Shown one piece after another: positions 23,941 through 56,978 of a DNA stretch of 64,000 bases. Source of the DNA: Candidatus Levyibacteriota bacterium (GTDB taxonomy: Bacteria; Patescibacteriota; Microgenomatia; Levybacterales; GWA1-39-11); NCBI GenBank assembly GCA_018062815.1, contig JAGORM010000001.1, positions 16,301 through 80,300 on the forward strand, in the 5' to 3' direction. Every line of letters begins with the position of its first letter. The first letter of the stretch is position 1. Under the pieces are notes generated by a model. The model searched no databases and had not been told where the DNA came from. It saw nothing but the letters and a program-made list of their open reading frames with translations. A program made the position numbers and the translations under genes.

Positions 23941-23989
23941 ACACCATTTAACTTAGTTGTTACATCTTTATAAATGTGACACGCTTTTA

Positions 23990-32064: not shown

Positions 32065-32106
32065 CATTTTTTTTAATTTCCTCGTTTTTTGGTATAATCC
32101 CCTTTC

Positions 32107-38980: not shown

Positions 38981-39442
38981 ATGTTAAATTTTTTTACAAA
39001 AGTATTCCTTCACGGTATAGCATATGCACATTGTGATATCCCTTGCGGAATATATGATCCAAATGGTGCGCAGTTAGCAGCGCATACTGTGCTTAGAATG
39101 ACACAGTTATTAGCAGAGAAAACTGATACTCATGACATAGCAAGAATTACTCATACTAAAGAAAAGCACGGTGAGGCAGTAGAGGAAGAATTGGGTACTC
39201 TTGAGAATGATTATTTTAAGACGGAGCATTTTGAACAATTCCCGGAATTAAATAGTCTATTGTCTGATGCGGTAAAGTTATCCATTGAAACACGTCAGCA
39301 TGTAGATAAACAGAAAGCAGAGGATTTACTTGAGAAGGTTTTACAAATTTCAGAAATCTTTTATAAAACAAAGAACGTAACTCCATTAAGGGTTCCTTCT
39401 GTGTATCCGACAAAAGGAGAGATCGTAATTTATACCGCATGA
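38981..39442 (+). CDS. sodN: Nickel superoxide dismutase precursor
   Basis: 16-aa propeptide followed by HCDIPCGIYDP, the Ni-hook motif (His-Cys-x-x-Pro-Cys-Gly-x-Tyr). Confidence 0.85.
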   Translation: MLNFFTKVFLHGIAYAHCDIPCGIYDPNGAQLAAHTVLRMTQLLAEKTDTHDIARITHTKEKHGEAVEEELGTLENDYFKTEHFEQFPELNSLLSDAVKLSIETRQHVDKQKAEDLLEKVLQISEIFYKTKNVTPLRVPSVYPTKGEIVIYTA

Positions 39443-40256: not shown

Positions 40257-40523
40257 ATGGAATCGCCCCGATGTCAGAGTTGTGGGCAACCACTCTCTGT
40301 TTCTAACTTCGGTACAAATGCAAGCGGTACTTATAATGAAGAGTACTGCAGTATGTGTTTTCAGAAAGGGCAATTTACTGATTCAGACATAACACTTTCT
40401 CAAATGATGCAGATTTCCGCAAGCCATATGGTAAACGTGCTTCATATGAATGAGAATGAAGCAAAGAGTTTTGCAATAGATGTCATTCCAACACTTAAAA
40501 GATGGAAGAATATGAGAGCTTAA
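40257..40523 (+). CDS. Zinc-ribbon domain protein (88 aa)
   Basis: CQSCGQPL...YCSMCFQKG; resembles the Zn_ribbon_2 family. Confidence 0.45.
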   Translation: MESPRCQSCGQPLSVSNFGTNASGTYNEEYCSMCFQKGQFTDSDITLSQMMQISASHMVNVLHMNENEAKSFAIDVIPTLKRWKNMRA

Positions 40524-41563
40524 AGTTTTCTTTTTAGATTTAAAAGACTCCACCTTAATTTATCCGCAATTTTAATAAATTCATACATAGTAGGATTTAT
40601 AACCAAGTCATAGCTTCCCACAAATTCCGTAAGAGTCGCTCCATATCCTTGTTTAAATTTGTGAAAGCCATACCATGGATCTTTTGTATTGGGATCAGGG
40701 TTTAGTGCTCCCCACAAGTCAAACTGTTTCAGTTTTTCTTTTTTCCCAAAACGGATTGCTTCCCACATTATTAAATTGTTTGCCATCATTTCTCTATGTT
40801 CTCTGGATGATGCGCCGTAAGGATAGTAGAGAGTATCTTGGAATGAGAAAAGAACCCAAGATGTTAGTACATTTTCAGCTCCTTCTGTATCCGTGAATGC
40901 ATGGAATAGATGATATGAAAGTGCGGATTCTTTTTTTGATAATTCTTCCCAAAGTTTTTTGTGATAAGAAGAGGTGTGGGCATAAAATTTTTGTCGTGTA
41001 GTTGTTTCTTCATATAGTTTTAAAAATGTTAAAAACCCTTTTTCAGAATTATCTTCTTTAATTTTTACATTATGTTTGAGAGCAATTTTTATGTTGTAGC
41101 GTGTTTTAGGATGCATATGTGATAAGAGTGTGTCTTCCCCAGGAGTTAAGTCTAGAATAAACGAATATTTTGTGAAAAGTGGACGGAAGGATAATTTAAG
41201 CGGGATGTTTTTATTTAGTATTAATTGCTCAATCTCAAATTTTCCTTCGGGTGCAGTTATATTTGGTTCAAGCTGTATGTATATGCATTTATTTTTTTTT
41301 GCCTGATCAGCAACATCCTCAAGTAGTTTTGTGTTAGGAAGACATCCTTTTGGAAGATAGCCAATATAATATGGCAGTTGAGGAATTTTGTGAATAGTCA
41401 TTGTGTAGCAATTGGTAATATTTTTCTTTGTTCCTATTTCTCCGCGCCTTATAATTCTGATTCCTGTATTTCTTCTAAATTCTCCCCACTCATATGATTG
41501 AAGCGGATGTGTGACGGCCTTGTTATATTCCTTTTTATACTCCTCAGTGATATCTGTAAACAT
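40520..41563 (-). CDS. FemAB-family peptidoglycan interpeptide aminoacyltransferase
   Basis: N-terminus HPLQSYEWGEFRRNTG (Fem/MurM family motif); size about 350 aa. Confidence 0.55.
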   Translation of the reverse strand: MFTDITEEYKKEYNKAVTHPLQSYEWGEFRRNTGIRIIRRGEIGTKKNITNCYTMTIHKIPQLPYYIGYLPKGCLPNTKLLEDVADQAKKNKCIYIQLEPNITAPEGKFEIEQLILNKNIPLKLSFRPLFTKYSFILDLTPGEDTLLSHMHPKTRYNIKIALKHNVKIKEDNSEKGFLTFLKLYEETTTRQKFYAHTSSYHKKLWEELSKKESALSYHLFHAFTDTEGAENVLTSWVLFSFQDTLYYPYGASSREHREMMANNLIMWEAIRFGKKEKLKQFDLWGALNPDPNTKDPWYGFHKFKQGYGATLTEFVGSYDLVINPTMYEFIKIADKLRWSLLNLKRKL

Positions 41564-43509: not shown

Positions 43510-44187
43510 ATGGAGAAAAAACGAATAATTGCGAATTGGAAATCATATAAGACGGCAGAGGAAACTGTTCTTTTTCTTGATTCACTTAAGGCTGCATGGG
43601 ACGAGCTACCAATGCAGAATAAGGAAATAATAATTCTCCCTTCATATATGTCTTTGTCAACTGCGTATGTATACAAAGAGACAGAGGGTTTACCTATTTT
43701 TATTGGTGCGCAAGATATTTCAACATATGATGAAGGACCATACACAGGTGAAGTAAGCGGAAGACAAATTTCGGAGTTCTGTCAGTTTGTTCTTATAAAT
43801 CACTCAGAAAGAAGAAGATATAACCATGAGGGTGATCAGGAGGCAAGAGCAAAAGTTATTCAAGCACAGAAATACAATTTAACGCCTTTGTATTGTGTTC
43901 AGGATGAACAGGCTGCAGTACCGGATAATATTTCTGAAATTGTATATGAGCCTCCATCTGCAATTTCCACCTTCCAACAAGGCGCGAAAGTACAAGATTC
44001 AGCAGAAATTGAAAGGGTTTTCAGTGTTTTGGGAAAGCGTTATCCGCAGGCAAATCTATATTATGGCGGGAGTGTTGATTCGGAAAGTATTAAAAGTCTG
44101 GTTCTCTTACCTCACATCACAGGGTTCTTGGTAGGAAGCGCAAGCTTGAACCCTGAAAGTTTTGCAAAAATATTAATGGCATGGTAG
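43510..44187 (+). CDS. tpiA: Triosephosphate isomerase
   Basis: IANWKSY, INHSERR, YEPPSAIST and YGGSV motifs, compared with NWKMN/GHSERR/EPVWAIGTG/YGGSV. Confidence 0.8.
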   Translation: MEKKRIIANWKSYKTAEETVLFLDSLKAAWDELPMQNKEIIILPSYMSLSTAYVYKETEGLPIFIGAQDISTYDEGPYTGEVSGRQISEFCQFVLINHSERRRYNHEGDQEARAKVIQAQKYNLTPLYCVQDEQAAVPDNISEIVYEPPSAISTFQQGAKVQDSAEIERVFSVLGKRYPQANLYYGGSVDSESIKSLVLLPHITGFLVGSASLNPESFAKILMAW

Positions 44188-45323
44188 TAAATAAAAAAAT
44201 AGCAATTGGCGTAGGTCTTTTTATCTTAATCATTTTTCTATTGGTTCTATTCAAGGCAATGCCCATATTTTGGGGAGTTTTTATTGATAAAAAAATAAGC
44301 GTTAAGAAAAGTGATAATGGAAACATAAATATATTATTGTTAGGTATTGGAGGAGCAAAGCATGATGGGCCAGATTTAACTGATACAATTATTTTGGCGA
44401 GTATAAATCCTCAAAAAAATATTGTTCACCTTGTTTCTATACCTCGGGATTTATATGTAGATAGTCTACAAACCAAGATAAATGCAGCGTATGCAAATGG
44501 TCAAGAAAAAGGGGGGAAAGGCATATTGCTTGCACGTTCAACTGTTGCTTCAATAACAGGCATAAGGCCGGACTATGTATTTGTACTAGATTTTTCTGGA
44601 TTCATAAAATTAGTGGATTTGATAGGCGGTATTGATGTGCAGGTTGAAAACACTTTAGATGATTATGCCTATCCTGAAGAGGGAAAAGAAAATGAATTAT
44701 GTGGGACAACGGATGATGGGCTCGCGTCTTTTTCTGCGCAAATTGCAACAGGAAGTGCGACAGAGTTTGATTTATTCCCTTGTAGGTTTTTTCACTTGCA
44801 TGTGCCTTTAGGGCTTCAGCATATGGATGGTGAATTAGCGTTAAAATTTGTGCGCTCAAGACATGCCTTAGGAAAAGAAGGGTCGGACTTTGCAAGAAGC
44901 AAGCGGCAACAGTTAGTTATAAACGCGGTGAGAGACAAAATATTATCTCTTGGAACACTAGCAAATCCGGTTAAGTTGATCGGGATAATTGGAATACTTG
45001 GGGATAATATACATACTGATATCCCGGAAGGGCAATTTGATGATTTTATAAAGCTTGCACAGAAAATGAAGGGAGCAAAAATTGAAAGTACAGTAATAGA
45101 TGAAGGAGATTTAGCGCAAGAAAGGTATGGTCTACTAATGAATCCTCCGACTAAAGACTATAGAGGGCAGTGGGTCTTAATTCCAAGAATAGGCAGCGGT
45201 AATTATTCAGAAATAAAAACCTATCTTGCATGCGTTATGAAAGGTGGGAATTGCCAAATCACAAAAGATACTGTTGAGGTTGGGAGAGTATTTCCAAGTG
45301 TGTCTCCAAGTGCTAGTCAATAA
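44181..45323 (+). CDS. LytR-CpsA-Psr (LCP) family cell-wall polymer transferase
   Basis: N-terminal TM. LLLGIGGAKHDGPDLTDTIILASINPQKNIVHLVSIPRDLYV is the LCP core. Confidence 0.75.
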   Translation: MVVNKKIAIGVGLFILIIFLLVLFKAMPIFWGVFIDKKISVKKSDNGNINILLLGIGGAKHDGPDLTDTIILASINPQKNIVHLVSIPRDLYVDSLQTKINAAYANGQEKGGKGILLARSTVASITGIRPDYVFVLDFSGFIKLVDLIGGIDVQVENTLDDYAYPEEGKENELCGTTDDGLASFSAQIATGSATEFDLFPCRFFHLHVPLGLQHMDGELALKFVRSRHALGKEGSDFARSKRQQLVINAVRDKILSLGTLANPVKLIGIIGILGDNIHTDIPEGQFDDFIKLAQKMKGAKIESTVIDEGDLAQERYGLLMNPPTKDYRGQWVLIPRIGSGNYSEIKTYLACVMKGGNCQITKDTVEVGRVFPSVSPSASQ

Positions 45324-47514
45324 TCTTATAGATAATGGTTTTCCCGTCTTTGCTTTGGAAAACACTTTGACCTAGAAAGTTAAAGTTATTGGTATTTAGT
45401 TTTGGGTATTTCCTTCTTTCAAGTTCTCCGACAACTACATATGATATTTTATATTTACTAATGATTTGTCTTGCGTCTTCCATGTTTCCTTCATAGGCTT
45501 TCCGAATTTCCTCAATTCTAGGTTGAGGAATATCGTATGTTCCGCGCCATAACCATTCATGTACCGTCCATCCTAAAATAGTTGGAAGACCGGTGTTTGC
45601 TGATATTCTTGCAAAGTCAGTGTAAGAATCTCCTTGAGCTTCTAAAACAACCGGTTGTCCCTTAACATTTTTTTGCAAAAAGTCTATTGCTTCAAGATCT
45701 CCTGGATATAAACTCCTCAAATATTTAGTTCCATCCAAGCCTGAGTAGGTTTTAAGATCGCCATAGTATGATTTTATAGCAAAGTAAGGATAGATCAGAA
45801 CAAGAGTGAGCAATAAAAGACTGCAAAGTGTAAAAAATATTTTTAATATTTTTTTCCGAGTAGATATTAGAATAAAAATAATTATGTAGCTACTCGTAAT
45901 TCCTAGCATGATAAATGATTGATATACAAGTTTAAACATGGTGTTTGCGCGATAATGTTGAGGGTAAATATCTTTAGCATAAAGTATCTCAGGAAGAATG
46001 ATTAATAGAGTGGACAGGAGAATTAGTATTAGAATAAAAAGATTACTGCGTCCCGCATCTTCAGAAAATGACAAATAAGAAAAATACTTCCACCTATTTT
46101 TAAGTTGCTTATGAGTTTTTTTTGCAAAAAACAAAAAAACAAAAAAAACAAATGCGAAGAAATAGAAAAATCCATAGAGAATTAACAGCTGATATGCAGG
46201 GGATTGTTGACAATGGTCTGCTTCAAATAGAAGTGGACCGATTTTCTGCAAATTAGGAAATATTTTAGAGACACATAAAACTCCGATTCCTGAGACAAAG
46301 GGTTTAAAAAAAAGACTAAACGGAATGGTAAACACTATGTATAGCAATATGGTTATTCCCACTTCTATTATTAGATTTTCAAACGCCAACTTAGCTCCCA
46401 GAACCTTTTTAATAGGAAAAAAATGTTTTGTTTTTTTAAACTCTATTTTAATATGCGTAAGACAAAGAGTCAGAAATACAAAAAACGTAAGCAACAGATA
46501 GATAATTCCATCCCATACATTTGTCATATACATAATAGCGAGTAAAAAAGATAAAAATACAACTTGTGATTTAAATAATTTTTTTGAGCTAATGATGCTA
46601 TATAGTAAGGCAATTATAGTAAGCACAAAAGGGATATCTGCCACATGTCCGTGAAGGTCTGATACGACAAAAGAATAAAGCGGGAATTCATGGATAGTAA
46701 AAGGAATAAATCTGGTAGCATTTGGATACCAGTAGCTATTTGGAAATAAATTTGGGGTAAATGATAAAAGCCATGGAGGAACAGGATTCTCTCCTTTGTA
46801 GGCCACAAAAAATGCATAAAGTGTATGTAGATTTCCGGAGAGTGATATTAGTGTTCCTCCTAATATCCCTCCAAGAATTGAGATCCTCTTACCATATTTA
46901 GAAAACATGCTATATAAAATTGAGAAACCTCCAGTGAAGGTAAATGCGAAAAGTGTTGCGATCATAAGGTTATAGCTTACGCTTGAAGGAATTCCTGATA
47001 GTCGTGTTAATACCGCGGTTGCTAGATGCCCGAAAAAGTAATAGTTGATAGGTAGGGGAGTGAGCCAGATGTCTTTTGGCGGAAAGTAGTTTGTACGCAA
47101 TATAGAATTGACAAAGCCATAATCCATAAACTTCTCAAGCCCGTGGATGCTGGGTTCATGCGCGCGAATATATGCCCAAGCTATAATACACAAAAAGAAA
47201 ATTAATTCCTGAAAGACGATAATGCCTGAATTTTTTAATAAAAAAAAATGAGAAGATTTTTTAAATATTATAAAATTTATTATTCCTGAGACACCCATGA
47301 GAATGAGAAGTGAATATAAGTGGAACGGTAATATGTGAAGCGTTCCCAGGAGAAGTGAAGCGTAAGACAAGATACCAATTCCTATTATTTTAGAAAAAAT
47401 ATAATATCTATTTTTAGTATCCTGAAATAAGTATTTGGTGAGGGGGAAAAAAGTTATTCCTATAATAAAAAGAGTTACCCACCACCACAAGACAAAAAAT
47501 AAATCCTGAATCAT
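45313..47514 (-). CDS. Large polytopic membrane protein with a C-terminal extracytoplasmic domain (DUF2298/YYY-type putative glycosyltransferase)
   Basis: At least 14 predicted TM helices followed by about 150 aa of soluble C-terminus; co-oriented and overlapping with downstream GT-like genes. Confidence 0.35.
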   Translation of the reverse strand: MIQDLFFVLWWWVTLFIIGITFFPLTKYLFQDTKNRYYIFSKIIGIGILSYASLLLGTLHILPFHLYSLLILMGVSGIINFIIFKKSSHFFLLKNSGIIVFQELIFFLCIIAWAYIRAHEPSIHGLEKFMDYGFVNSILRTNYFPPKDIWLTPLPINYYFFGHLATAVLTRLSGIPSSVSYNLMIATLFAFTFTGGFSILYSMFSKYGKRISILGGILGGTLISLSGNLHTLYAFFVAYKGENPVPPWLLSFTPNLFPNSYWYPNATRFIPFTIHEFPLYSFVVSDLHGHVADIPFVLTIIALLYSIISSKKLFKSQVVFLSFLLAIMYMTNVWDGIIYLLLTFFVFLTLCLTHIKIEFKKTKHFFPIKKVLGAKLAFENLIIEVGITILLYIVFTIPFSLFFKPFVSGIGVLCVSKIFPNLQKIGPLLFEADHCQQSPAYQLLILYGFFYFFAFVFFVFLFFAKKTHKQLKNRWKYFSYLSFSEDAGRSNLFILILILLSTLLIILPEILYAKDIYPQHYRANTMFKLVYQSFIMLGITSSYIIIFILISTRKKILKIFFTLCSLLLLTLVLIYPYFAIKSYYGDLKTYSGLDGTKYLRSLYPGDLEAIDFLQKNVKGQPVVLEAQGDSYTDFARISANTGLPTILGWTVHEWLWRGTYDIPQPRIEEIRKAYEGNMEDARQIISKYKISYVVVGELERRKYPKLNTNNFNFLGQSVFQSKDGKTIIYKIID

Positions 47515-47564
47515 AATCTATGAAAGTATTCTACAGTGTCAACTGTTTTAAATGCAAGCTTACA

Positions 47565-48956
47565 TCACCAGTTAACGTTAGGAGATGTAAGGCAATGTGC
47601 CGCGCTACCCAGACCTGAAACTCTCATAGTGATAAGGTCGTTTTTAGGATCTGGGAATAGATCTTTACAGAGTCTCCAGGGGGCTGCATCATGATTGGTC
47701 GCATAACCTTTTATTATTTTTGTTCGCAGCTTGCCCCCTTTTATAAATTGAAGATTGTATACCACCCCATCATTTCCGGAGATTGTATTTGCCATTGAGT
47801 AGATGTTTTGCCCCAGAAGATCTGTTTTTCCCCAAAGGGAGGACGCAAATGGATCTGGGGAGATAAACAAACTTATAAGGCTGACTGAGAAAACTATAGT
47901 AACAAGTATTCTTTCAATAATAATAGTTTTAAGCTTTTGGATGCTTACAGAAAACCACAAGATAAGAAAAGGAATTATAGGTAGAGCGTAGCGCGGTATT
48001 GTGAATGTTTGTAGTGACAAAACTGAAATAAAATACAAAAAGCAAAAAAGAGCAATCGTTATTATAGCTTTAGATTTTTGATTAGGAGCAATTAATTGGT
48101 TAATAAATTTTGTTCTATCTACTTTATTAGAGAAAAATACAAAGGTGAGTATTATGCTGCTACCGATCATTATCCAGTTTGAGTTTAGGAACAGTAATTG
48201 AAGTAGCTGCTGATGGGCATACCCGTTTATAATTTGTAGAGTTATTATATTGTGAAAGACAGTGTAGAAAGTTCCTCTATCAGCAGTACTAGTAAACAGA
48301 TAGTCCTTCCACGAGCTCTTGCCTAGTGAGTGTAGAAAATATTGCCATAATCCATATGCTGCAAAAGCGGCAATATAGGGCATAAGGGTACGAATTCTTT
48401 TTTGAGAATAAATAATATCTACGGCAAGCAGAATAATAACGAATAAGATGCCTGTCTCTTTGGTTAATACGATTGCGATTAGAGACAAGGTGTATAGAAA
48501 TAATTTATTGTTCAAAAATAATGCAAGACTTATTAATATAAGATTGGTAAGAATATAGTCAGTTAAGCTGAAAATTCCACTTGAAATAAACAAAGGGTTT
48601 ATAGAGAGAAAAGTTACAAACAGGCTCGCAGTTTTTGTGTTGCTTAATTTTTTTGAAGTAATAAATCCTCCAATAATTCCTCCAAATCCTAAAATATAAC
48701 CCAGAAGAGCTGGAAACTCCGGATGTACTCCAAAGATTTGATATAGCATAGAAAGTGTAAAGACCTTTAATGGCGGATGTGCCGAGTTAAAATGTAGAAA
48801 AAATTTATCATACCCTCCTTGAAAGAAATAATAAGATTGTACAAAGTCTATATTGCCGTCTCGTAGGGGTAGAGTTGTGATAAATGGTAGGAAAAGAGTA
48901 CTAAATAAAATTAGCGAGACGAATAACCACACATTTTTTCTAATAAAATCATTCAT
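47565..48956 (-). CDS. Polytopic membrane protein, GT39/ArnT-like glycosyltransferase candidate
   Basis: At least 10 TM helices; position in an operon of GT39-like genes. Confidence 0.35.
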   Translation of the reverse strand: MNDFIRKNVWLFVSLILFSTLFLPFITTLPLRDGNIDFVQSYYFFQGGYDKFFLHFNSAHPPLKVFTLSMLYQIFGVHPEFPALLGYILGFGGIIGGFITSKKLSNTKTASLFVTFLSINPLFISSGIFSLTDYILTNLILISLALFLNNKLFLYTLSLIAIVLTKETGILFVIILLAVDIIYSQKRIRTLMPYIAAFAAYGLWQYFLHSLGKSSWKDYLFTSTADRGTFYTVFHNIITLQIINGYAHQQLLQLLFLNSNWIMIGSSIILTFVFFSNKVDRTKFINQLIAPNQKSKAIITIALFCFLYFISVLSLQTFTIPRYALPIIPFLILWFSVSIQKLKTIIIERILVTIVFSVSLISLFISPDPFASSLWGKTDLLGQNIYSMANTISGNDGVVYNLQFIKGGKLRTKIIKGYATNHDAAPWRLCKDLFPDPKNDLITMRVSGLGSAAHCLTSPNVNW

Positions 48957-48960
48957 CTAG

Positions 48961-50610
48961 TTAGTTATTAGCAGAGATTATTCTATTTAACTCTTCATAC
49001 GATAAATGTTTAGTATTTTTAAAAATAATTATTTTAGGGTGGTCGTAGACTTGAAACGACTCTTCTGATGCATCATCGTTTATTTCTATCCCAAGAAAAG
49101 AAGGGTATGAGGAGAACTCCGCAACTTTTGTATATCCTAATTTTTCCGCAAAAAGATATCTATAATACCTACTTGTTACAGGATAATTCTCTGTTAGATA
49201 AATAAGTGATCCATGAAGTCGTCTTGTTGTAAGGCTTATATAATCGGCAGATGCGAGCATATTGGCCAGATACTCTGCCTTATTATTAAACTCATTGTCA
49301 TAGATCGTAAGTTGTTCAGTTTTAAAAAACATATTTTTTCCTGGAATATATATAGGAAGTCCGTCATCCCAATGCTCTGTTAATACTAATTCGCCAGATT
49401 TAATATTTTCAAGCATCCAAAGAGACGCAGTATAGCGTGTTTGAGGTTTTGAGTAGACTGACATATACGAAAGAGCCCAAATAGCACTAGTTGTCAGAAA
49501 TATGAAAAGTATTATTCTCCCGAGAATTTTATATCTTTTTATAAAAATAGAAAGAGCAAACGCAGCATAAAGAGAGAAAAATGGTAAGAGAGGAGTCATG
49601 TATCGTATGAATTTTGCGTGCCATGAGGCAGCATACAGAAAATAAATAATGGGAAATATAAGAATAAAAAGATATGATGCCTTCCTTTTTTTAAAAGTAA
49701 AATATAAAACAAAGCCAAGCCCTAAGAGTGATAGAGCAAAAACTGGTCCCATTTGCCAAAACAAGTTATATAGTTCATACAAATAAGATATTGTTTTATC
49801 AAATTGATGGGTATATGGAACGATTACCCTTCCGGTTGCGACCCCTGTTTCATAATTCATTGATTGTAAAAATTTATGATAGGACAAAAAAGTGTATGGT
49901 GAGAACAGAAAGAAAATAGTAATAGTAAGTGCGAAAAAAAACACTGGTTTAAAAATAAAAGAAATAATATTTTTCCCCTTGGTTTTAAAGTCTATAAGTA
50001 AAAGACTTAAAAAGGGAATCATTAAAAAAGACAAAGCAGTTGTTTTTGCGGCAATTCCTAATCCAGAAGTGACAGCAAGAGCTGCAAGTAAAAAGGATCG
50101 AGGTTTTTCATAATAACACAAGGAGAGATAAGTAAGAAGAGTTACTATCAGAATGATAAAACTTTCGGTTGTTGCAAAATGTGCAATTTGTATGGACGAA
50201 ACGGTAAACGTGAAAATAAAACTTGCAATAATTCCTGTTATTTTATTAAACACCTTTTTCCCAAGTAAAAATATAACTAAAATAGTAAGAGTGGAAAAAA
50301 AAGCAGAAAAGGTTCTTCCAATCTGGTTTATATGCCCCCAGTCAGAAGTCCAAACACTTGTTTGATATACGGTATTCATCATTTCTCCACTCACTTTATA
50401 TAGGTATATTGGTAGACCTCCGTAGGCGAAAAAATCAGGGTCAAGTTGTGATACAAAATTAATTTTTGTAACAGCATTATCAATATTTCGCTCATCTGGG
50501 TGAAAGACTTGATAATTATCCCAATTTGCATTGTAGAAACGCAGGTAACCACCTAAGAGAATAATGAATACTACAAAAAATAACTGATAGTGTTTCTTTA
50601 GAAATTTCAT
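48961..50610 (-). CDS. GT39/PMT_2-family (ArnT / protein O-mannosyltransferase-like) membrane glycosyltransferase
   Basis: TM1 followed by the loop YNANWDNYQVFHPDERN (the DE-type catalytic loop of GT-C PMT/ArnT enzymes); many TM helices. Confidence 0.5.
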   Translation of the reverse strand: MKFLKKHYQLFFVVFIILLGGYLRFYNANWDNYQVFHPDERNIDNAVTKINFVSQLDPDFFAYGGLPIYLYKVSGEMMNTVYQTSVWTSDWGHINQIGRTFSAFFSTLTILVIFLLGKKVFNKITGIIASFIFTFTVSSIQIAHFATTESFIILIVTLLTYLSLCYYEKPRSFLLAALAVTSGLGIAAKTTALSFLMIPFLSLLLIDFKTKGKNIISFIFKPVFFFALTITIFFLFSPYTFLSYHKFLQSMNYETGVATGRVIVPYTHQFDKTISYLYELYNLFWQMGPVFALSLLGLGFVLYFTFKKRKASYLFILIFPIIYFLYAASWHAKFIRYMTPLLPFFSLYAAFALSIFIKRYKILGRIILFIFLTTSAIWALSYMSVYSKPQTRYTASLWMLENIKSGELVLTEHWDDGLPIYIPGKNMFFKTEQLTIYDNEFNNKAEYLANMLASADYISLTTRRLHGSLIYLTENYPVTSRYYRYLFAEKLGYTKVAEFSSYPSFLGIEINDDASEESFQVYDHPKIIIFKNTKHLSYEELNRIISANN

Positions 50611-51887
50611 GAAGAAGACAGGAGATTGGCAATTTTTTGCCCTAACTCTACGGCATAGTTCGTGCCCCTATCCCATGGGTATACCTGTTCAATATTTGCA
50701 AGATACACGTTTTTTAAAGGTGTATGAAATGAAGGTATTAGCTTGGAATAGTTTGGTGGAACAATAGGTTGTGCAAATGGGGCGCGAAAAACTTTAAAAG
50801 AAATAACATCGTTGCCATAATTTGGATTAATTTTTGAAAGCCAAGGATCGTACAGTTTTAATAAATCATTCTCATTTAATGAAAATCTTGGATCTGATGT
50901 TTCCATATAGTTTCCGACATAGACTAAATGCTCATTGTTATAGTGTTTCTTGTCCATGAAATTAGTATGTTCAACTATCGCCAAAATGGGCGATTTTATG
51001 TCACACATAGATAGCCAATATGTTCCCTCTGAAAAGAACGGGTTTTTTAACCGTAAGACTAAATTCATTGCTGCTATTCCCTTGAGCTTTCCAAGCGAAT
51101 CTTTATAGTTTTCGGGAAGTTGATTGGCAATTTTTTTAAATAAAAATGAGGGTGTAGTAACAATTATAGAATCAAATTTTTTTATATATTCTTTTCCGTT
51201 TGTTATATATTTTATGGTAGTATCATCATCTGATGAGATATTAGTTACCTCTGTTTTAAAATGAAATGTGCCTCCTTTTTTTTCTATTACATTTTGCAGG
51301 TGGGTTGCAAATTCCAAAAATCCTCCTTCAGGGTATGCTAAATTTGGTGTGCGTTTATATACACGTGCCCAAAACCAGGCAAGAGAAACAGATTTTGCAT
51401 ATTTTCCAAGCTTATTATCCATGAGCGGTTTCCATAGCATTTCATATGCTGTATTTCCCATCGTTTTCTTTAGATATGGTTCTGCCCTATAACGTTCAAG
51501 CGGTTTCCATAATGGGTTATATCTTAAAAGCGCCAAAGAGATTCCCATACGGAATCTATTAATGATATTAAGTTTTGGAAATTTTAAAACTGAAAGAGGA
51601 GAATCAAGTTGATATATATCGTTCTCTACAAAAGAACATGTAATTGGGCGTTTAACAATAACCTTGTGGTTAATCTCCTTCGCCAAAGCTAAAACACTTT
51701 TATCATTTGTGAACCAGTGATGATAGTGGTACTCAAGTGACCAGTTCCAAGCCCTTTCTTTATAGCCGATTGCTAGCCCGCCAGGCTTAGTGTCCAATTC
51801 AAAGACAGTAACGGAGTGTCCCTTTTTTGATAAATAATATGCGGCAGATAACCCGGTGAATCCAGAACCTACAATTGCAATATTCAT
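50607..51887 (-). CDS. FAD/NAD(P)-binding oxidoreductase (amine-oxidase/desaturase-like)
   Basis: MNIAIVGSGFTGLSAAYYLSKKGHSVTVFELDTKPGG is a Rossmann GxGxxG dinucleotide-binding N-terminus. Confidence 0.6.
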   Translation of the reverse strand: MNIAIVGSGFTGLSAAYYLSKKGHSVTVFELDTKPGGLAIGYKERAWNWSLEYHYHHWFTNDKSVLALAKEINHKVIVKRPITCSFVENDIYQLDSPLSVLKFPKLNIINRFRMGISLALLRYNPLWKPLERYRAEPYLKKTMGNTAYEMLWKPLMDNKLGKYAKSVSLAWFWARVYKRTPNLAYPEGGFLEFATHLQNVIEKKGGTFHFKTEVTNISSDDDTTIKYITNGKEYIKKFDSIIVTTPSFLFKKIANQLPENYKDSLGKLKGIAAMNLVLRLKNPFFSEGTYWLSMCDIKSPILAIVEHTNFMDKKHYNNEHLVYVGNYMETSDPRFSLNENDLLKLYDPWLSKINPNYGNDVISFKVFRAPFAQPIVPPNYSKLIPSFHTPLKNVYLANIEQVYPWDRGTNYAVELGQKIANLLSSS

Positions 51888-51909
51888 AAATAAAATTGAG
51901 AGAGACTGT

Positions 51910-53286
51910 TTATAGCATAAACAATAATATGGATCCTGACACTATAAAAAGAATTGAAATAGATGTCAAGAAAATACTTTGGCTTACACTTCCTGTTGGT
52001 GGTAGAGTTTGGGTTGGGGTAGTAGTTATTATTGTGGCTATAGTTGGCGTTGGTGTAGGGATTTGTGTGGGTGTTAAAATTGGAGTAACGGAAGCTGTAG
52101 GCGTAGGAATTGTTGTAGCAGTTACAATCGTAGGGAGAGCAGTAGGTGTAGGCGCAATGGTTTGAGTAGGTGTAGGTTTTGCGGATGGCGTTGCGTTTTC
52201 TGCTATCTGTGACCCAGATGCAAGAATCGTGAACGTATTTGTTACAGTTTTTGTTGCACCGTTTACATCAATAGCTTGAAGTTTTATCGCATATTCTCCT
52301 TGTGGTAGTGAAACAGCTGGTCTATATGCCCAGTTTCCATTCGGATCAGTTCTAACCTGCACATCTATTAAATCAGGTTCTGTAAATAAAGTTACTAATG
52401 AGTTTGGGAGTGCAGTGCCTCTGAATTGAGGTTTATCATCAGTGTATGTCTGCCCATTTTTAGGTGAAATAATTAAAGTTTGCATCGTTTTTTTACCGGT
52501 TGGGATTGCAAGAAGGCTTGATTTAGAGCTTGGGTTTTCTGTTTCATTGCTGGCTATAAAGGAGTAATTACTAGACAATGTGATCGTAGGTATCTCTGAT
52601 GATGGGGAGTATGTATATACTATCTTTGATGTGAGCTCCCCTTTTTTTGCTGAAAGATTAATATTTGTATTTGGTACGATCGTTAGTATTTGGTTGTGTG
52701 AAGTATTTCTTATAAGGTATGTGGGTATCGAATATTTTCCTTCAGAGTTTGTAACGGCAGATATTGGGGCAGCATTTGGTATTTTTATATCCAATAAAAC
52801 ATCATCTGCATCTTCTCCGTTTGGCATAATAACTTTTCCTGAAAGTGCATACATGTTTCCTGAAGAAGGTGCATCTCCATTAGCAGTTGTTGCAGTATAA
52901 AAATTTCCATTGTCAGTATATTCATCTCCATTTGATAGAAGTACAAATTCATACTTTGTATTTGGTTTCAGGTTTGTAATTGTTATGAAATGATTTATGT
53001 ACGCATGATTCCCTTGGTTATCTCTAGCATCAAACGCAATAGAAGGAGAATCAGGGTTATTGATTTTTACTGCGGATAATGTAGGGTCGAGTGTGGTAAA
53101 AGTAACGGTAAATGAACTGTTTGTGATATTTGATACGGATACATTTTGTGGTTCTTCATTCGGAGTTGCCTGGCTTGAAGTGAATACTCCAATTTGTACC
53201 AAGAAAGCGGTTACAAAAAGTCCTGAAATTAGTATTATGATTGCAAAAACTGTAGGAATTCTTTTTTGGAATAAACTTCTTTTCAT
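51910..53286 (-). CDS. Surface protein with Ig/FN3-like beta domains, a Thr/Pro-rich linker and a C-terminal LPPTG sorting-signal-like motif + TM
   Basis: Signal peptide. ...TPTPTIATIITTTPTQTLPPTGSVSQSIFLTSISILFIVSGSILLFML at the C-terminus. Confidence 0.55.
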   Translation of the reverse strand: MKRSLFQKRIPTVFAIIILISGLFVTAFLVQIGVFTSSQATPNEEPQNVSVSNITNSSFTVTFTTLDPTLSAVKINNPDSPSIAFDARDNQGNHAYINHFITITNLKPNTKYEFVLLSNGDEYTDNGNFYTATTANGDAPSSGNMYALSGKVIMPNGEDADDVLLDIKIPNAAPISAVTNSEGKYSIPTYLIRNTSHNQILTIVPNTNINLSAKKGELTSKIVYTYSPSSEIPTITLSSNYSFIASNETENPSSKSSLLAIPTGKKTMQTLIISPKNGQTYTDDKPQFRGTALPNSLVTLFTEPDLIDVQVRTDPNGNWAYRPAVSLPQGEYAIKLQAIDVNGATKTVTNTFTILASGSQIAENATPSAKPTPTQTIAPTPTALPTIVTATTIPTPTASVTPILTPTQIPTPTPTIATIITTTPTQTLPPTGSVSQSIFLTSISILFIVSGSILLFML

Positions 53287-53636: not shown

Positions 53637-54242
53637 TTATTCTTTTGCAAAATACGCTTTACCCGAAAACGACAACTCTAATTGTCCTTTATCTGTTTTC
53701 CCGGTCGTAATTTTTTGAATACTGATAATTCTTTGGAAATTTGTTACATTTTCGATAAATGTATTAACATTTTGTTCACCGCCTGTTACTTCAACCGTTA
53801 TTGTATATCCATATAATTTCCCACCCGCGTCTTGTGGGTAATATTGAAGAGGAGATACGGTTAACGCTCTCAACTCCACCTGATTTTTAGAAGCGAGCGT
53901 TTCTACTTGTCGAGTGAGTGTTGGGATATCGGGAGTTATTGGGATTGCATTATAGACCATTGGTAGGTCTGGTTTGATTTGTGAATATTCAGAATCAAGG
54001 TTGTGAAGCGCTGCAAGCTTTTTTTGTAGCGCATTATAGACGCTTTTATTATCCTCGAGCTTTTTTTGTAGATTGGTAATGGTAGAAATTGCTGGTCTAA
54101 GAATAAAAAATCCAAAGAAGGACACAGAAAAAAGAGTAAACACTATGTATAAATAGGCACCTGTTTCCTTTTTAGTTTTTACACGTAAGAATTCCTGACG
54201 TAACCAATACACTGGTTGTTTCTTTTTTGATTCTGTGTTCAT
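53637..54242 (-). CDS. PilO-like pilus assembly protein
   Basis: Short cytoplasmic N-terminus, a single TM, a coiled coil, then an alpha/beta domain. Overlaps the upstream PilN-like gene. Confidence 0.4.
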   Translation of the reverse strand: MNTESKKKQPVYWLRQEFLRVKTKKETGAYLYIVFTLFSVSFFGFFILRPAISTITNLQKKLEDNKSVYNALQKKLAALHNLDSEYSQIKPDLPMVYNAIPITPDIPTLTRQVETLASKNQVELRALTVSPLQYYPQDAGGKLYGYTITVEVTGGEQNVNTFIENVTNFQRIISIQKITTGKTDKGQLELSFSGKAYFAKE

Positions 54243-54793
54243 AGTGAAATGTCTGTTTGTTGTAATGTTGTAATTAATTTAAATCTAATTCCCTGATCAA
54301 GGCTCGTTAACTCCTCAATTGATATAGAAATAACGGATGGATTTTTCTTTAACTTGTCAATTAATGTATTAAGTGTAAATATGGAGTAGGTCTGACCATC
54401 AATTGCGATTGTTGTATCAGAAACATTTAAATTGCTTGTTAAAAATTCAGAAGTATTAAGATAGCTTACTAATTCACTTAAAAAGACTACCTTTTTTTGT
54501 GTATCTGTTTCAATAGTTTTGATAGTAGATAATCTGTTTTGAAGATTTCTATATTTTTTTTCATTTACTGCCTGAGCTTCTACAAAAATTTGTGATTTTC
54601 GTATCTGGTCGTTAAGATCAACTATCTGTCGATCAATAATAAATCTATAACCTAATGCAGCAAGTGTTAAAAGTTCAACTCCAACTATGATAACGCGCCC
54701 AGTGTTGATGGTCCATCTGATGAATATACTAGAAGTTGAATCGGTATCTTTTCTGCCAAGATTAATAGATAGGCGCTGTGCGTCATTTTGCAT
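54239..54793 (-). CDS. PilN-like pilus assembly protein
   Basis: N-terminal INLGRK (compared with the INLLP PilM-binding motif), a single TM, then coiled-coil periplasmic region. Confidence 0.45.
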   Translation of the reverse strand: MQNDAQRLSINLGRKDTDSTSSIFIRWTINTGRVIIVGVELLTLAALGYRFIIDRQIVDLNDQIRKSQIFVEAQAVNEKKYRNLQNRLSTIKTIETDTQKKVVFLSELVSYLNTSEFLTSNLNVSDTTIAIDGQTYSIFTLNTLIDKLKKNPSVISISIEELTSLDQGIRFKLITTLQQTDISL

Positions 54794-54855
54794 AGTTTAA
54801 GTGTAATGCGTTTTTGCTTGTTTGTCAAAGAAGTGAAGATTGGTTTTGAGAAGAA

Positions 54856-55334: not shown

Positions 55335-56978
55335 ATGAAAGAAATCTTTCAAAAAAGCATAAATGCGCTAATTTCAAAACAGACAAATATTTTTTCCGCT
55401 GCTCTTTTTATTATTCTAACTACGATAATATCTCAATTATTAGGACTTTTTAAATATAGAATACTCGTTTCTTTATTTGGTGCGTCAACAGAGCTTGGTG
55501 TTTTCTTTGCAGCCTTCAGGGTTCCGGACTTTATCTTTCAAGTTGTTATAGCGGGTGCGTTGTCAACATCATTTATACCTGTATTTACAGAATATGTGAC
55601 TCACGGAAAGAGGCGGGAAGCAGACTCTTTCACTTCATCACTTCTTACAATCGGTGTGATTTTCTATGTTTTGGTAAGTATCATAGTTATTTTATTCTCT
55701 TATCAGCTTGCGGAATTGGTTGCTCCGGGTTTTTCTCCTCACGAGCTTAGGTTGATGGCACAGTTCATGATTATTATTCAACTAGCTCAAATGTTTTTTA
55801 TTTTGGGTACAGTTGCAACAGCCGTTCTTCAATCTTTGCAGCATTTTTTGATTCCAGGCATAGCAACAGCAGCATACAATCTAGGAATTATTCTAGGGCT
55901 TGTAGTTTTCGTTCCTTTTATAGGTTTTTATTCAGCTACTGTTGGTGTAGTCATAGGTTCTGTTTTGTTCTTTGTAGTACAGCTTCCCCTTTTAATTCAC
56001 TCAGGATTTGTTTATAAGCCAACAATAGATTTAAAGAACGGCACATTAAAAGTCATTCATCTGATGGTACCTAGATCTGCGACTTTGATTGTAACCCAGC
56101 TTGCGATAACTGGTAATGTTTTTTTTGCATCATTTTTAGGTGCAAGAAGTTTAGTTGTTTTTGATTTAGCCCAAACTCTTGTTATGGCACCTGTATTATT
56201 ATTTGGTCAGTCAATAGCGCAAGCATCATTCCCTGCTTTATCTCAGAAAAAAAATGATAAAAAAACATTTGATTCAATTTTTGTATCCTCATTTAATCAA
56301 ATATTGTATTTAACGCTTCCACTGTCTGTTTTATTTATAGTTTTAAGAATTCCACTAATTAGACTTTTTTTTGGTGCTTCTCGCTTTGATTGGACTGCAA
56401 CGGTAGATACAGGAAGAACACTTGCGTATTTCTCAGTGTCTATTGCGGCACAGTCCTTAATATACTTATTGGCAAGAGGATTTTATGCTCATAAAGACAC
56501 AAAAACACCCTTATTTGTAACGATTTTTGCTGTTGTTATAAACATAAGCATTTCATATGTTTTTGTACTCATCTATCATCTTCCCATATTTTTCCTTGCT
56601 TTTGCATTCTCGATTTCAAACATACTTGCGTGTATTATTCTTTTCTTATTGTTAGACAAAAAAATACATTTGCCCAAAAGAAGCATTATTATAACAAGCA
56701 CAAAAATTTTATTTGCTACTTTGATTATGGGAGTTGCTTTGTATATTCCAATAAAGCTTCTTGATCAATTGGTTTTTGATACTACAAAAACAATTAATCT
56801 GATTCTCTTAACAGGTATCGCGTCTTCTGCCGGGTTAATCACCTACATATTTTTTACATGGTTATTTAATATTCAGGAAGCAAGATATGTCATAGAGGTA
56901 GTAAAGAAATTTAAAAATGGGAAAAAATTATTGCAAGACATGGGAGAATTAATAAATGGGCCTAAGCCTACCTTGTAG
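55335..56978 (+). CDS. murJ: Lipid II flippase MurJ/MviN
   Basis: FFAAFRVPDFIFQVVIAGALSTSFIPVFTEY and about 14 TM helices. Confidence 0.85.
   Translation: MKEIFQKSINALISKQTNIFSAALFIILTTIISQLLGLFKYRILVSLFGASTELGVFFAAFRVPDFIFQVVIAGALSTSFIPVFTEYVTHGKRREADSFTSSLLTIGVIFYVLVSIIVILFSYQLAELVAPGFSPHELRLMAQFMIIIQLAQMFFILGTVATAVLQSLQHFLIPGIATAAYNLGIILGLVVFVPFIGFYSATVGVVIGSVLFFVVQLPLLIHSGFVYKPTIDLKNGTLKVIHLMVPRSATLIVTQLAITGNVFFASFLGARSLVVFDLAQTLVMAPVLLFGQSIAQASFPALSQKKNDKKTFDSIFVSSFNQILYLTLPLSVLFIVLRIPLIRLFFGASRFDWTATVDTGRTLAYFSVSIAAQSLIYLLARGFYAHKDTKTPLFVTIFAVVINISISYVFVLIYHLPIFFLAFAFSISNILACIILFLLLDKKIHLPKRSIIITSTKILFATLIMGVALYIPIKLLDQLVFDTTKTINLILLTGIASSAGLITYIFFTWLFNIQEARYVIEVVKKFKNGKKLLQDMGELINGPKPTL

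Follow-up and report, generated by a model that had tools for sequence, protein, structure and literature searches.

A conserved Microgenomates gene row with predicted GT-C enzymes and a predicted flavoprotein that probably decorates the cell envelope

A row of five minus-strand genes in a 64-kb stretch of DNA from a Candidatus Levyibacteriota bacterium (the window, meaning all of the DNA that was analyzed) probably serves to decorate the cell envelope. On balance, we lean toward the view that Microgenomates have inherited this block vertically as a module for glycosylating the cell envelope, fed by lipid-phosphate-sugar donors, and that it is neither a mobile cassette nor one dedicated to a single substrate. 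The observations that bear on this view are gene order, folds, family memberships, conserved acidic residues, synteny, and domain fusions.

All five open reading frames were verified at the positions listed in Table 1. Read in gene order, a 22-bp gap separates the surface-protein and flavoprotein genes, the flavoprotein and 549-aa genes overlap by 4 bp, and gaps of 4 bp and 50 bp follow between the 549-aa and 463-aa genes and between the 463-aa and 733-aa genes. An earlier sequence-only reading had described co-oriented genes with overlapping or near-touching boundaries (here −4 to +50 bp), and had placed three GT-C-fold membrane glycosyltransferases and an FAD flavoprotein together in one tightly packed block; both descriptions hold. 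The same gene order was found again in about 30 to 38 independent Microgenomates contigs, and therefore the arrangement is not due to chance. Because the whole gene order from MurJ to UvrD is conserved in the clade, adjacency alone argues only weakly for shared function.

Table 1. Features of the gene block and its flanks (window positions).
Feature	Positions	Strand	Basis or remark
LCP (LytR-CpsA-Psr) glycopolymer-to-peptidoglycan ligase	44181..45323	+	LytR_cpsA_psr 116.7 bits (cutoff 24.6), TIGR00350 93.5 bits (cutoff 62.3)
DUF2298/TIGR03662 'Chlor_Arch_YYY' membrane protein, 733 aa	45313..47514	-	predicted GT-C fold + C-terminal globular domain
Second GT-C glycosyltransferase, 463 aa	47565..48956	-	divergent PMT_2 relative, variable cluster member
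PMT_2-type GT-C glycosyltransferase, 549 aa	48961..50610	-	Pfam PMT_2 + PMT
Predicted FAD flavoprotein, 426 aa, PRK07233 family, cytoplasmic	50607..51887	-	Amino_oxidase, NF005560
Surface protein, 458 aa, candidate acceptor	51910..53286	-	fn3, Big_13, linker, LPPTG
Thr/Pro-rich linker coding region (residues 363-434)	51985..52200	-	composition scan
LPPTG coding site	51991-52005	-	residues 428-432 of the 458-aa surface protein
Small bitopic protein, 112 aa	53292..53630	-	PilP position after PilO
PilO	53637..54242	-	Pfam PilO 47.2 bits, cutoff 22
PilN-like protein	54239..54793	-	Pfam PilN 20.1 bits, under cutoff 22.8
MurJ-type lipid-linked-oligosaccharide flippase	55335..56978	+	Pfam MurJ on the identical gene in locus L001

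The 426-aa product is, judging from its sequence, an FAD flavoprotein of the amine-oxidase/phytoene-desaturase fold and a member of the PRK07233 family. It matches Pfam Amino_oxidase over its full length (81 bits), along with NAD_binding_8 and DAO, and scores 387.2 bits against NF005560/PRK07233 (cutoff 252; model positions 1–428 of 435). Thus, the FAD oxidoreductase proposed for the block takes shape as an amine-oxidase-fold flavoprotein. The protein has no TM segment and carries a GxGxxG motif at residues 7–12, and the FAD-binding residues G7, G9, G12, and E30 are invariant in 15 divergent members of a family that comprises 686 clusters at 50% identity (E<1e-30). Searches of the PDB with a flavoprotein profile returned distant MAO, PDS, and PPOX entries plus uncharacterized archaeal proteins, with no close solved relative, and matches in a single-sequence search were confined to the N-terminal FAD-binding stretch. 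Its nearest characterized families are HpnE, CrtI, and PDS, which act on isoprenoid chains, and HpnE is the next best characterized family after PRK07233.

Two candidate identities for the flavoprotein were rejected. A UGM-like mutase finds no support, as UGM structures align with the profile only toward its N-terminus (positions 2–91 for 4dsg and 4–198 for 1i8t) and no GLF domain was found. A DprE1-type VAO oxidase does not fit: mycobacterial DprE1 has the VAO/FAD_binding_4 fold, whereas the protein described here has no FAD_binding_4 match, and any similarity would be one of functional analogy.

The 549-aa protein exceeds the Pfam cutoffs for PMT_2 (34.1 bits; cutoff 26) and PMT (26.3 bits; cutoff 22.7). 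The PMT match is partial (profile positions 86–204 of 245), and no PMT_4TMC or MIR domain was found at E<=0.01. The 463-aa protein matches no family above threshold, and many of its 31 homologues carry PF13231. It aligns with the 549-aa family by hhalign (98.5%, E 2e-15), and its AF2 model (pLDDT 91.3, pTM 0.92) has STT3, ArnT, AglB, PglB, ALG12, and Pmt4 as its top Foldseek matches in the PDB. PDB sequence searches gave no informative relative for any of the three membrane proteins. Each of these two enzymes has invariant acidic residues in the loop after TM1, namely P38-D39-E40 in 16 sequences of the 549-aa family and D33 in all 31 sequences of the 463-aa family, and the positive-inside rule (basic N-terminus) predicts that this first loop is external. 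The sequence-only reading had called the membrane proteins GT39/PMT-like. This applies at the broad PMT_2 level to two of the three, and fails in that the DUF2298 protein belongs to a separate family, Pfam PMT is not matched by either the 463-aa or the 733-aa protein, and neither a full PMT nor a PMT_4TMC domain is present. An orthologue of the 463-aa protein was found in none of the other 85 fetched loci, and therefore the three-enzyme arrangement is peculiar to this lineage; the notion of three enzymes acting in sequence does not extend to a general feature of such loci.

The third membrane protein (733 aa) scores 485.4 bits against TIGR03662 (cutoff 300.25; model positions 4–725 of 727) and 317.9 bits against DUF2298. 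Its YYYxG-type motif reads N157-Y158-Y159-F-F-G162-H163, in which N, Y, Y, G, and H are invariant. Also invariant are E127, D131, and D148, which lie in a loop that is predicted to be external but follows TM4. Comparison by hhalign revealed no relation to the 463-aa family and a match to the 549-aa family for the C-terminal half only (79%), and therefore the GT-C status of DUF2298 rests on structure searches, in which modeling assigns a GT-C fold to DUF2298/TIGR03662 proteins. The C-terminal domain, which contains an invariant GWxVHEWLWRG motif, appears AglB-like by structure. A profile of this domain run against PDB sequences found no AglB or STT3, only chance TIM matches, and thus the resemblance is a structural lead only. 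Archaeal S-layer glycosylation (AglD, which combines GT2 with UPF0104/PF03706; AglB/STT3) differs from the block in this respect, since here there is no sequence-level AglB/STT3 similarity and no WWDYG motif, and the host is bacterial (CPR).

Related loci, which were sought with a 6-sequence alignment, place the flavoprotein next to glycosylation genes well beyond this clade. In Microgenomates, about 30 loci have a GT-C gene after the flavoprotein gene. The distance from the flavoprotein stop to the start of a 549-family gene is at most 50 bp in about 29 loci, and DUF2298 is downstream in about 29. One Levybacteria locus (L008) has the LCP gene directly after the flavoprotein gene and no GT-C gene, so the coupling is not obligatory at the locus level. 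In a Nanoarchaeota locus a PMT_2 gene adjoins the flavoprotein gene, and in 11 Chloroflexota loci a PF03706 (flippase-like) gene lies 0–170 bp upstream of it. Furthermore, a member of the flavoprotein family is fused to GtrA_DPMS_TM in one protein (P0300) and to an LPG_synthase_TM/flippase-like domain in another (P0272). Because PF03706 or GtrA domains adjoin or are fused to the flavoprotein in other lineages, action on a lipid-linked substrate is supported, and the earlier suggestion that the oxidoreductase modifies a lipid-linked donor thereby gains independent backing. A further fusion candidate (P0227) was rejected as a link between GT-C and flavoprotein, as its N-terminal 395-aa polytopic domain reaches only 26% against the 463-aa family by hhalign and has no NCBIfam match. 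The flavoprotein has no close relative among characterized proteins; its role rests on guilt by association, and it could be unrelated to glycosylation.

One credible alternative, although we lean against it as it stands, is that the block forms part of a cell-wall glycopolymer or lipoglycan pathway, in which the GT-Cs elongate or branch, on the outer face, a polysaccharide that is lipid-linked or bound to the wall, the LCP enzyme ligates it to peptidoglycan, and the surface protein is a mere neighbor. Mycobacterial Aft, Emb, and Mpt enzymes extend or branch such polysaccharides on the outer face, and AftA, AftB, and AftD are among the top matches by structure. The LCP gene, whose product scores above both cutoffs, is convergent with the DUF2298 gene, overlaps its 3′ end by 11 bp, and comes directly after it in about 25 loci. 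The MurJ gene is divergent from the rpsT-pilN block and is conserved in about 25 loci as well. GT-C copy number ranges between none and at least 3, and one locus (L005) has GT4 and methyltransferase insertions. In other CPR loci the flavoprotein gene sits amid four PMT/PMT_2 genes, in clusters of a polysaccharide type that also contain GT2, GT4, a Wzx-like gene, and a UDP-sugar dehydrogenase, and where the AftD GT-C domain is matched weakly, below threshold. Set against this, no priming phosphoglycosyltransferase, polymerase, or ABC/Wzx exporter was found in the window block, and LCP, TIM, and UvrD may be just conserved housekeeping neighbors. Glycopolymer synthesis fits the LCP/MurJ flanks and the variable number of GT-Cs at least as well as protein glycosylation does.

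Another proposal, made by the sequence-only reading, is a dedicated protein O-glycosylation operon in which three GT-Cs act in sequence, in the manner of Pmt, on the linker of the adjacent LPxTG protein while the flavoprotein tailors the donor. We regard this as possible but rather doubtful. The 458-aa protein has an N-terminal signal/TM segment together with Pfam fn3 (28 bits) and Big_13 (35.5 bits) domains. Its 72-residue linker, delimited by 20-aa windows in which T+P make up at least 55% (best 60-aa window, 63%), is the longest T/P-rich stretch found in the scanned proteins of the window. The sequence-only reading had described it as a (TPTx)n linker; the stretch is irregular and does not follow that repeat strictly. 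Beyond the LPPTG site lies a 26-residue hydrophobic C-terminus (TM) that lacks a basic tail. The protein resembles sortase-anchored LPXTG proteins in its LPPTG, its C-terminal hydrophobic segment, and the preceding Pro/Thr-rich, wall-spanning linker. It differs from them by the missing basic tail, by an N-terminal TM that is apparently retained, as the conserved N-terminal cytoplasmic motif (K-R-I-P-T) suggests, and by the absence of a sortase among the window ORFs scanned. The LPxTG signal is degenerate: among 38 orthologues, 8 have a strict LPxTG, 18 have [LIV]Px[TSA]G, 34 have Px(x)G, and 22 have a basic tail.

Several observations favor such an operon. Besides being co-oriented with the flavoprotein gene across the short gap noted above, the surface gene adjoins it or sits within about 2 kb upstream in nearly all of the ~38 Microgenomates loci. 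The T/P-rich linker is kept in every orthologue (38/38), ahead of Px(x)G and the TM. In addition, mycobacterial Pmt (MtPMT) prefers Pro-rich Ser/Thr stretches as acceptors (PMC12331936), and the adjacent 112-aa protein, which has no Pfam match but a position that is conserved in synteny, has its own Thr/Pro-rich stretch (residues 77–98). With two further envelope proteins in the window, these linkers make up the candidate acceptors.

However, the surface-protein gene is part of a separable pilN-pilO-small-TM module and is translationally coupled to it, with its start/stop overlapping the upstream small-TM gene in many loci. The pilN/pilO-like genes that had been noted at the 5′ end are secure for PilO, which exceeds its cutoff, and not for PilN, which falls under it and is conserved in position across loci; of the type IV pilus alignment subcomplex (PilM/N/O), a pilM gene is not adjacent here, and rpsT lies upstream instead. 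The distance from the surface gene to the flavoprotein module grows to 1.3–7.7 kb in three loci (L033, L058, and L066), and outside Microgenomates (other CPR, Chloroflexota, Nanoarchaeota) the flavoprotein loci lack the surface protein. The region's best sigma-70-like match (11/12) lies between the surface/pil module and the flavoprotein module, just upstream of the flavoprotein gene, in a promoter and terminator scan whose match totals were not above those of shuffled sequence. The three best minus-strand promoter-like matches are suggestive in placement only, and the one before the DUF2298 gene is doubtful, as it abuts the ATG. Taken with the variable GT-C number and the lineage-specific 463-aa enzyme, these points leave the surface protein only weakly tied to the glycosyltransferase operon.

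A more ambitious joint reading is a long shot. Perhaps the PRK07233 flavoprotein is an unrecognized enzyme of lipid-linked glycosylation and DUF2298 an unrecognized, protein-directed GT-C branch, the two together forming a CPR system that decorates the Thr/Pro linkers of pilus-associated surface proteins. The flavoprotein might then saturate or hydrate the polyprenyl-phosphate carrier (dolichol-like) or be a non-DprE1 oxidase of lipid-P-sugars, with a role common to CPR bacteria, Chloroflexota, and DPANN archaea, and the GWxVHEWLWRG motif of DUF2298 might bind the acceptor as WWDYG does.

It is quite improbable that the flavoprotein is functionally unrelated to the GT-Cs, as a PPOX-, CrtI-, or HpnE-type pigment or haem enzyme or an amine oxidase held in place by frozen gene order. 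The JGI label of protoporphyrinogen oxidase on its relatives, the region-wide synteny, and the locus with no adjacent GT-C genes would agree with this. In contrast, its HpnE (69 bits; cutoff 283), CrtI family (43; 238), and PPOX (32; 98) scores in NCBIfam are far under cutoffs while PRK07233 passes, the fusions to GtrA and PF03706 domains are independent, and membrane glycosylation genes are recurrent neighbors in three phyla and in DPANN archaea. To our knowledge, haem and carotenoid pathways are also generally missing from CPR genomes. Finally, ArnT-type lipid A modification or a transporter function is exceedingly improbable and can be set aside: structure searches with the 463-aa and 733-aa models do list ArnT, and JGI names one homologue 'Ara4N transferase-like', but no ArnT model matches at E<=0.01 in NCBIfam, transporter folds appear only at Foldseek probabilities of <=0.14, and Patescibacteria are, as far as we know, generally considered to lack LPS.

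For the envelope glycosylation module that we favor, we infer the donor type, the flavoprotein substrate, and the acceptor as follows. A PRK07233-type flavoprotein would be translationally coupled to GT-C enzymes, two of the PMT_2 type and one of the DUF2298/TIGR03662 type. All characterized GT-C enzymes that we know of use lipid-phosphate-linked sugar donors, and those encoded here would take sugar from a polyprenyl-P-sugar and pass it to an acceptor at the membrane's outer face, with an acidic external-loop residue (D39/E40 in the 549-aa protein, D33 in the 463-aa protein) serving the transfer. The flavoprotein most likely works at the inner leaflet, before flipping, on the lipid-linked donor or the isoprenoid carrier, and its reaction might be sugar oxidation or lipid (de)saturation. 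Surface proteins may offer the acceptor in their Thr/Pro-rich linkers, as found in the 458-aa and 112-aa proteins and in others in the genome. In addition to these linkers, or in their place, the acceptor could be a wall glycopolymer, to be ligated to peptidoglycan by the neighboring LCP enzyme. This is an equally good candidate because the block lies between a conserved LCP ligase and MurJ. No donor pathway can be seen here, since neither a polyprenyl-phosphate sugar synthase (GT2) nor a small flippase gene was found in the 64-kb window. Likewise, none of the 30 window ORFs scanned against Pfam is a GT2 donor synthase, a sortase, or GtrA, and the window holds no GT-C paralogues beyond the block.

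Known systems offer partial parallels. Three-component extracytoplasmic pentofuranose systems resemble the proposed module in that the cytoplasm supplies or tailors a monosaccharide donor on a lipid, which is then flipped and serves GT-Cs on the outside. Mycobacteria and some Bacillus clusters employ an FAD oxidoreductase to tailor this lipid-linked sugar, and their GT-Cs, of which there are several, work one after another (PMC11127046, PMC11194591). The mycobacterial set of DprE1/DprE2, AftA/B/D/Emb, and Lcp1 has a link to an LCP ligase that parallels the LCP neighbor seen here, and the pilus-gene link of TfpW pilin arabinosylation in P. aeruginosa parallels pilN/pilO. Unlike these systems, the block has no UbiA-type phosphoribosyltransferase, DprE2-type reductase, or MATE/GtrA flippase, and no pilin gene is adjacent. 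Actinobacterial O-mannosylation (Ppm1 plus Pmt, GT39; M. tuberculosis Rv1002c) differs as well, as here the PMT match is partial, PMT_4TMC is missing, three GT-Cs are present rather than one, no Ppm1 gene is nearby, and the flavoprotein partner is absent from the Pmt system.

The window proteins are bona fide members of TIGR03662/DUF2298 and PRK07233 above curated cutoffs, and both families are uncharacterized. A literature search on DUF2298, PF10060, TIGR03662/3, and PRK07233 found nothing functional, and its 'YYY' finds concern the unrelated Y_Y_Y sensor domain. Modeling now assigns the DUF2298/TIGR03662 family a GT-C fold. On our best reading, the module is built from uncharacterized families and is otherwise a variant of known extracytoplasmic glycosylation. 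As far as we found, the recurrent linkage of the flavoprotein family (686 clusters) with GT-C, PF03706, and GtrA across three bacterial lineages and DPANN archaea is not described in the literature. It hints at a so far undescribed step in the metabolism of lipid-linked sugars or of carrier lipids. CPR/Patescibacteria are ultrasmall and mostly episymbiotic, and their surface is where they contact the host. The block is core and conserved. Across Levybacteria the flavoprotein is 65–86% identical, which suggests a housekeeping role for envelope glycosylation in the clade.

The five open reading frames (ORFs) delineated by the sequence-only reading were recovered at exactly the coordinates it proposed, all on the minus strand of a window with a GC content of about 36%, and ENA contig k141_198095 carries the same block. 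In order, they encode a 458-aa surface protein, a 426-aa flavoprotein, and membrane proteins of 549, 463, and 733 aa (the last a DUF2298 protein). The first two genes lie 22 bp apart, the second and third overlap by 4 bp, and the remaining two junctions are gaps of 4 and 50 bp. The pilN- and pilO-like genes said to lie upstream in the same strand block are also present. A gene for a 112-aa bitopic protein lies 5 bp ahead of the surface-protein gene and is preceded on the same strand by genes for PilO (6-bp gap) and a PilN-like protein (4-bp overlap) and by rpsT (62-bp gap), beyond which the MurJ gene is divergent. At the other end, the last gene shares the final 11 bp of its 3′ end with a convergent LCP ligase gene, which is followed by genes for TIM and UvrD/PcrA.

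A scan of GTDB species representatives yielded 80 loci, which we annotated with phmmer and custom HMMs and, for selected neighbors, with Pfam. Gene order is conserved in Microgenomates (Levy-, Chisholm-, Shapiro-, and Blackburn-bacteria, among others) as MurJ / rpsT, pilN, pilO, small-TM, surface protein, flavoprotein, GT-C(s), DUF2298 / LCP, TIM / UvrD, where GT-C denotes a membrane glycosyltransferase fold and small-TM the counterpart of the 112-aa gene. In about 29 loci, the start of a homolog of the 549-aa gene lies no farther than 50 bp from the flavoprotein stop, and DUF2298 is likewise present downstream in about 29. What lies between flavoprotein and DUF2298 varies, with one or two (up to several) 549-family paralogs, GT4 or methyltransferase insertions, or a 545-aa polytopic family that directly follows the flavoprotein gene in place of the 549-type GT-C in several Levybacteria. 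This family has no Pfam or NCBIfam match and is a relative of DUF2298 (hhalign 95%, 463 columns aligned). No ortholog of the 463-aa gene was found in any other locus. One Patescibacteria locus (L008) runs from pilN through the flavoprotein directly to LCP, with neither a GT-C nor a DUF2298 gene in between, and this natural 'deletion' should be useful for comparative tests.

The pilN-pilO-small-TM-surface module can be separated from the flavoprotein-GT-C module, the two being 7.7 kb (L033), 1.3 kb (L058), or 2 kb (L066) apart in three of these loci. Promoter and terminator scans returned no more hits than shuffled sequence, and the overall count of sigma-70-like matches equals the shuffle expectation. 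Nevertheless, the three best minus-strand matches fall in logical places, and the strongest sits in the final 60 bp of the surface-protein gene, roughly 50 nt ahead of the flavoprotein ATG. The separable modules and the promoter-like placement weaken the case for a dedicated surface-protein/GT-C operon, without refuting co-transcription.

Coordinates of features in the window and in related loci from other genomes (L handles)
Location	Strand	Feature	Remarks
Window 51910-53286	-	Surface-protein gene	458 aa
Window 51941-51969	-	Sigma-70-like match, 11/12	Upstream of flavoprotein
Window 54800-54828	-	Sigma-70-like match, 10/12	Upstream of pilN
Window 47515-47542	-	Sigma-70-like match, 10/12	Abuts DUF2298 ATG; doubtful
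Window 62261-63349	-	362-aa protein	
Window 2303-3418, 6370-6834, 7177-8802, 28763-31195	-	CPR-type type IV secretion-like gene set	PrgI-family protein, two T4SS_pilin proteins, weak TraG/VirD4-type coupling-protein match
Window 31980-32065	+	tRNA-Ser, anticodon ACT (A34)	ARAGORN; tRNA confirmed by Rfam, 52 bits
Window 35787-37982	+	Secreted Kelch-repeat + Peptidase_C39_2 protein	731 aa
Window 38981-39442	+	Ni-superoxide dismutase	
Window 40520-41563	-	FemAB-family peptidoglycan bridge enzyme	
Window 23541-23944	+	tmRNA	
L011:11283-12920, L033:11268-12914, L004:11303-12943		545-aa family	Others also found
L008:10001-12461		pilN, pilO, small-TM, surface protein, flavoprotein, then LCP	Patescibacteria
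L056:4219-7440	+	PMT_2 GT-C + NHL beta-propeller fusion, 1073 aa	Upstream of two PF03706 genes and flavoprotein; Chloroflexota
L072:2777-4084, L083:11455-12774		UDP-glucose/GDP-mannose dehydrogenase	After flavoprotein; Chloroflexota

Elsewhere in the window, the Kelch-repeat protein, the superoxide dismutase, the FemAB-family enzyme, and the tmRNA represent ordinary CPR content. The PrgI-family protein has a T/P-rich stretch of its own (residues 225-259), and tRNA-Ser(ACT) adjoins tRNA-Ser(GCT) on the opposite strand. A serine tRNA with unmodified A34 is unusual in bacteria.

The surface protein consists of an N-terminal transmembrane (TM) segment, fn3 and Big_13 domains, and a Thr/Pro-rich stretch (residues 363-434) longer than that of any other window protein scanned. 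The stretch is irregular and not strictly the (TPTx)n repeat of its earlier description. After an LPPTG sequence at residues 428-432, the protein ends in a hydrophobic segment of 26 residues that lacks a basic tail. In each of the 38 distinct orthologs, a Gly-containing motif and a TM segment come after a T/P-rich linker; strict LPxTG occurs in 8/38, [LIV]Px[TSA]G in 18/38, and a basic tail in 22/38. The window ORFs scanned yielded no sortase, and a sortase signal at the C-terminus, although plausible, is not a secure reading. In front of the first TM segment, the orthologs (the window protein and those of L004-L073) share the cytoplasmic motif M-K-[KR]-x-[LI]-[WF]-x-[KR]-R-[IM]-P-T. A cleaved signal peptide would not usually be conserved in this way; the motif suggests a retained N-terminal anchor, perhaps with a cytoplasmic partner.

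In many loci, the ortholog gene overlaps the end of the small-TM gene located after pilO, and the 112-aa and 458-aa pair occupies the place of pilP and pilQ in pilMNOPQ operons. This pair may be a CPR-specific component of the pilus machinery rather than a free adhesin. A 362-aa protein encoded elsewhere in the window is doubly anchored like the 458-aa protein, with an N-terminal TM segment and a C-terminal hydrophobic segment, and has a weak PKD_4 match just below threshold (26.5 bits versus a cutoff of 27).

All three membrane proteins have the GT-C fold. The 549-aa protein scores above the Pfam cutoff with both PMT_2 and PMT, the PMT match being partial; a Pfam scan found no PMT_4TMC module in it, and P38-D39-E40 is invariant across its family. 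No Pfam or NCBIfam family reached threshold for the 463-aa protein, whose 31 database homologs often carry PF13231. Its family, in which D33 is invariant, matches the 549 family with 98.5% probability in profile comparison, and its AF2 model (pLDDT 91) matches STT3, ArnT, AglB, PglB, ALG12, and Pmt4. The 733-aa protein belongs to TIGR03662/DUF2298 and was placed in the fold by structure searches. The GT39/PMT-like label originally given to these proteins is sound for the GT-C superfamily but is not supported for GT39/PMT proper. Two alternatives raised against that label also fail: the NCBIfam scan and CPR biology effectively exclude a role in lipid A modification of the ArnT type, and transporter folds are excluded.

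The flavoprotein has neither a TM segment nor a signal peptide and begins with a GxGxxG Rossmann motif. It shows the Amino_oxidase fold over its full length, scores above the curated NCBIfam threshold for NF005560 (PRK07233, 'hypothetical protein'), and stays far under the HpnE, CrtI, and PPOX cutoffs. Its family comprises 686 clusters at 50% identity (E<1e-30), and no close relative has been solved or characterized. Outside Microgenomates, the surface protein is absent and the flavoprotein still keeps glycosylation partners. Other CPR loci combine it with four PMT/PMT_2 genes, GT2, GT4, DUF2304, and a Wzx-like gene; a Woesebacteria locus with GT4, two PMT_2-like genes, and a sugar epimerase; and a Nanoarchaeota locus with an adjoining PMT_2 gene. 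A PF03706 gene precedes the flavoprotein gene at a distance of 0-170 bp in 11 Chloroflexota loci, some of which also encode a UDP-sugar dehydrogenase downstream of it or a PMT_2-NHL fusion close by.

Family members are also fused to LPG_synthase_TM (PF03706, flippase-like; P0272), to GtrA_DPMS_TM (P0300), and to a methyltransferase (P0161). PF03706/UPF0104 is the MprF flippase domain and a predicted GlcN-PG flippase in Pseudomonas aeruginosa (PMC5898192, PMC12713373, bioRxiv 10.1101/2022.03.11.483950), and GtrA-type proteins are the Und-P-glucose flippases of GtrABC systems (PMC11194591). The recurrence of these partners ties the flavoprotein to handlers of membrane lipid-linked sugars. In another member (P0227, 835 aa), the flavoprotein domain follows a polytopic N-domain of about 400 aa with seven predicted TM segments, which has no Pfam or NCBIfam match and reaches only 26% against the 463-aa family in hhalign. 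If this were a true GT-C domain, it would be a direct Rosetta stone for the GT-C-flavoprotein pairing.

Our best mechanistic guess is an action at the inner leaflet, where the flavoprotein would modify a lipid-linked donor or its carrier. Saturating, desaturating, or hydrating the isoprenoid carrier seems somewhat more likely than oxidizing the sugar, because isoprenoid-acting members of this fold are numerous (HpnE, CrtI, and PDS are among the matches, and CrtN and RetSat are further examples) and we know of no sugar-hydroxyl oxidase with the amine-oxidase/PDS flavoprotein fold. The closest characterized relatives are isoprenoid-chain enzymes. The hydroxyarchaeol of Methanosarcina is cited in PMC10821996 as the product of a phytoene-desaturase homolog; the archaeal dolichol alpha-isoprene reductase is still unidentified, and a Haloferax GGR mutant kept alpha-saturation (PMC10821996).

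The acceptor cannot be read from the fold, because protein-directed (Pmt, STT3, DPY19) and glycan-directed (Aft) enzymes score almost equally. A glycopolymer acceptor is a tentative possibility, consistent with the conserved LCP and MurJ neighbors, the varying number of GT-C genes, and the polysaccharide-type surroundings of the flavoprotein in other loci. A protein acceptor at the Thr/Pro-rich linkers, as the sequence-only reading proposed, is about as tentative a possibility; it would fit the conserved linkers adjoining the cluster and the further T/P stretch of the 112-aa neighbor, and bacterial Pmt is known to prefer Pro-rich Ser/Thr sites (PMC12331936). Both could be true. Overall, the observation behind that proposal is borne out, and its O-glycosylation interpretation is supported in part.

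The block resembles extracytoplasmic glycosylation by lipid-P-sugar/GT-C systems such as Ppm1/Pmt and GtrABC, three-component pentofuranose systems and TfpW pilin arabinosylation, archaeal AglD/AglS, and mycobacterial DprE1/Aft/Emb/Lcp1, although DprE1 and the flavoprotein of the block are not alike in fold. It is a variant of this system type assembled from uncharacterized families; we found no publication on the function of DUF2298, TIGR03662, or PRK07233. The surface-protein coupling is not the most interesting result. Rather, the most interesting and transferable result is the linkage of the PRK07233 flavoprotein across phyla to GT-C proteins, PF03706, and GtrA, together with the placement of DUF2298 in the GT-C fold.
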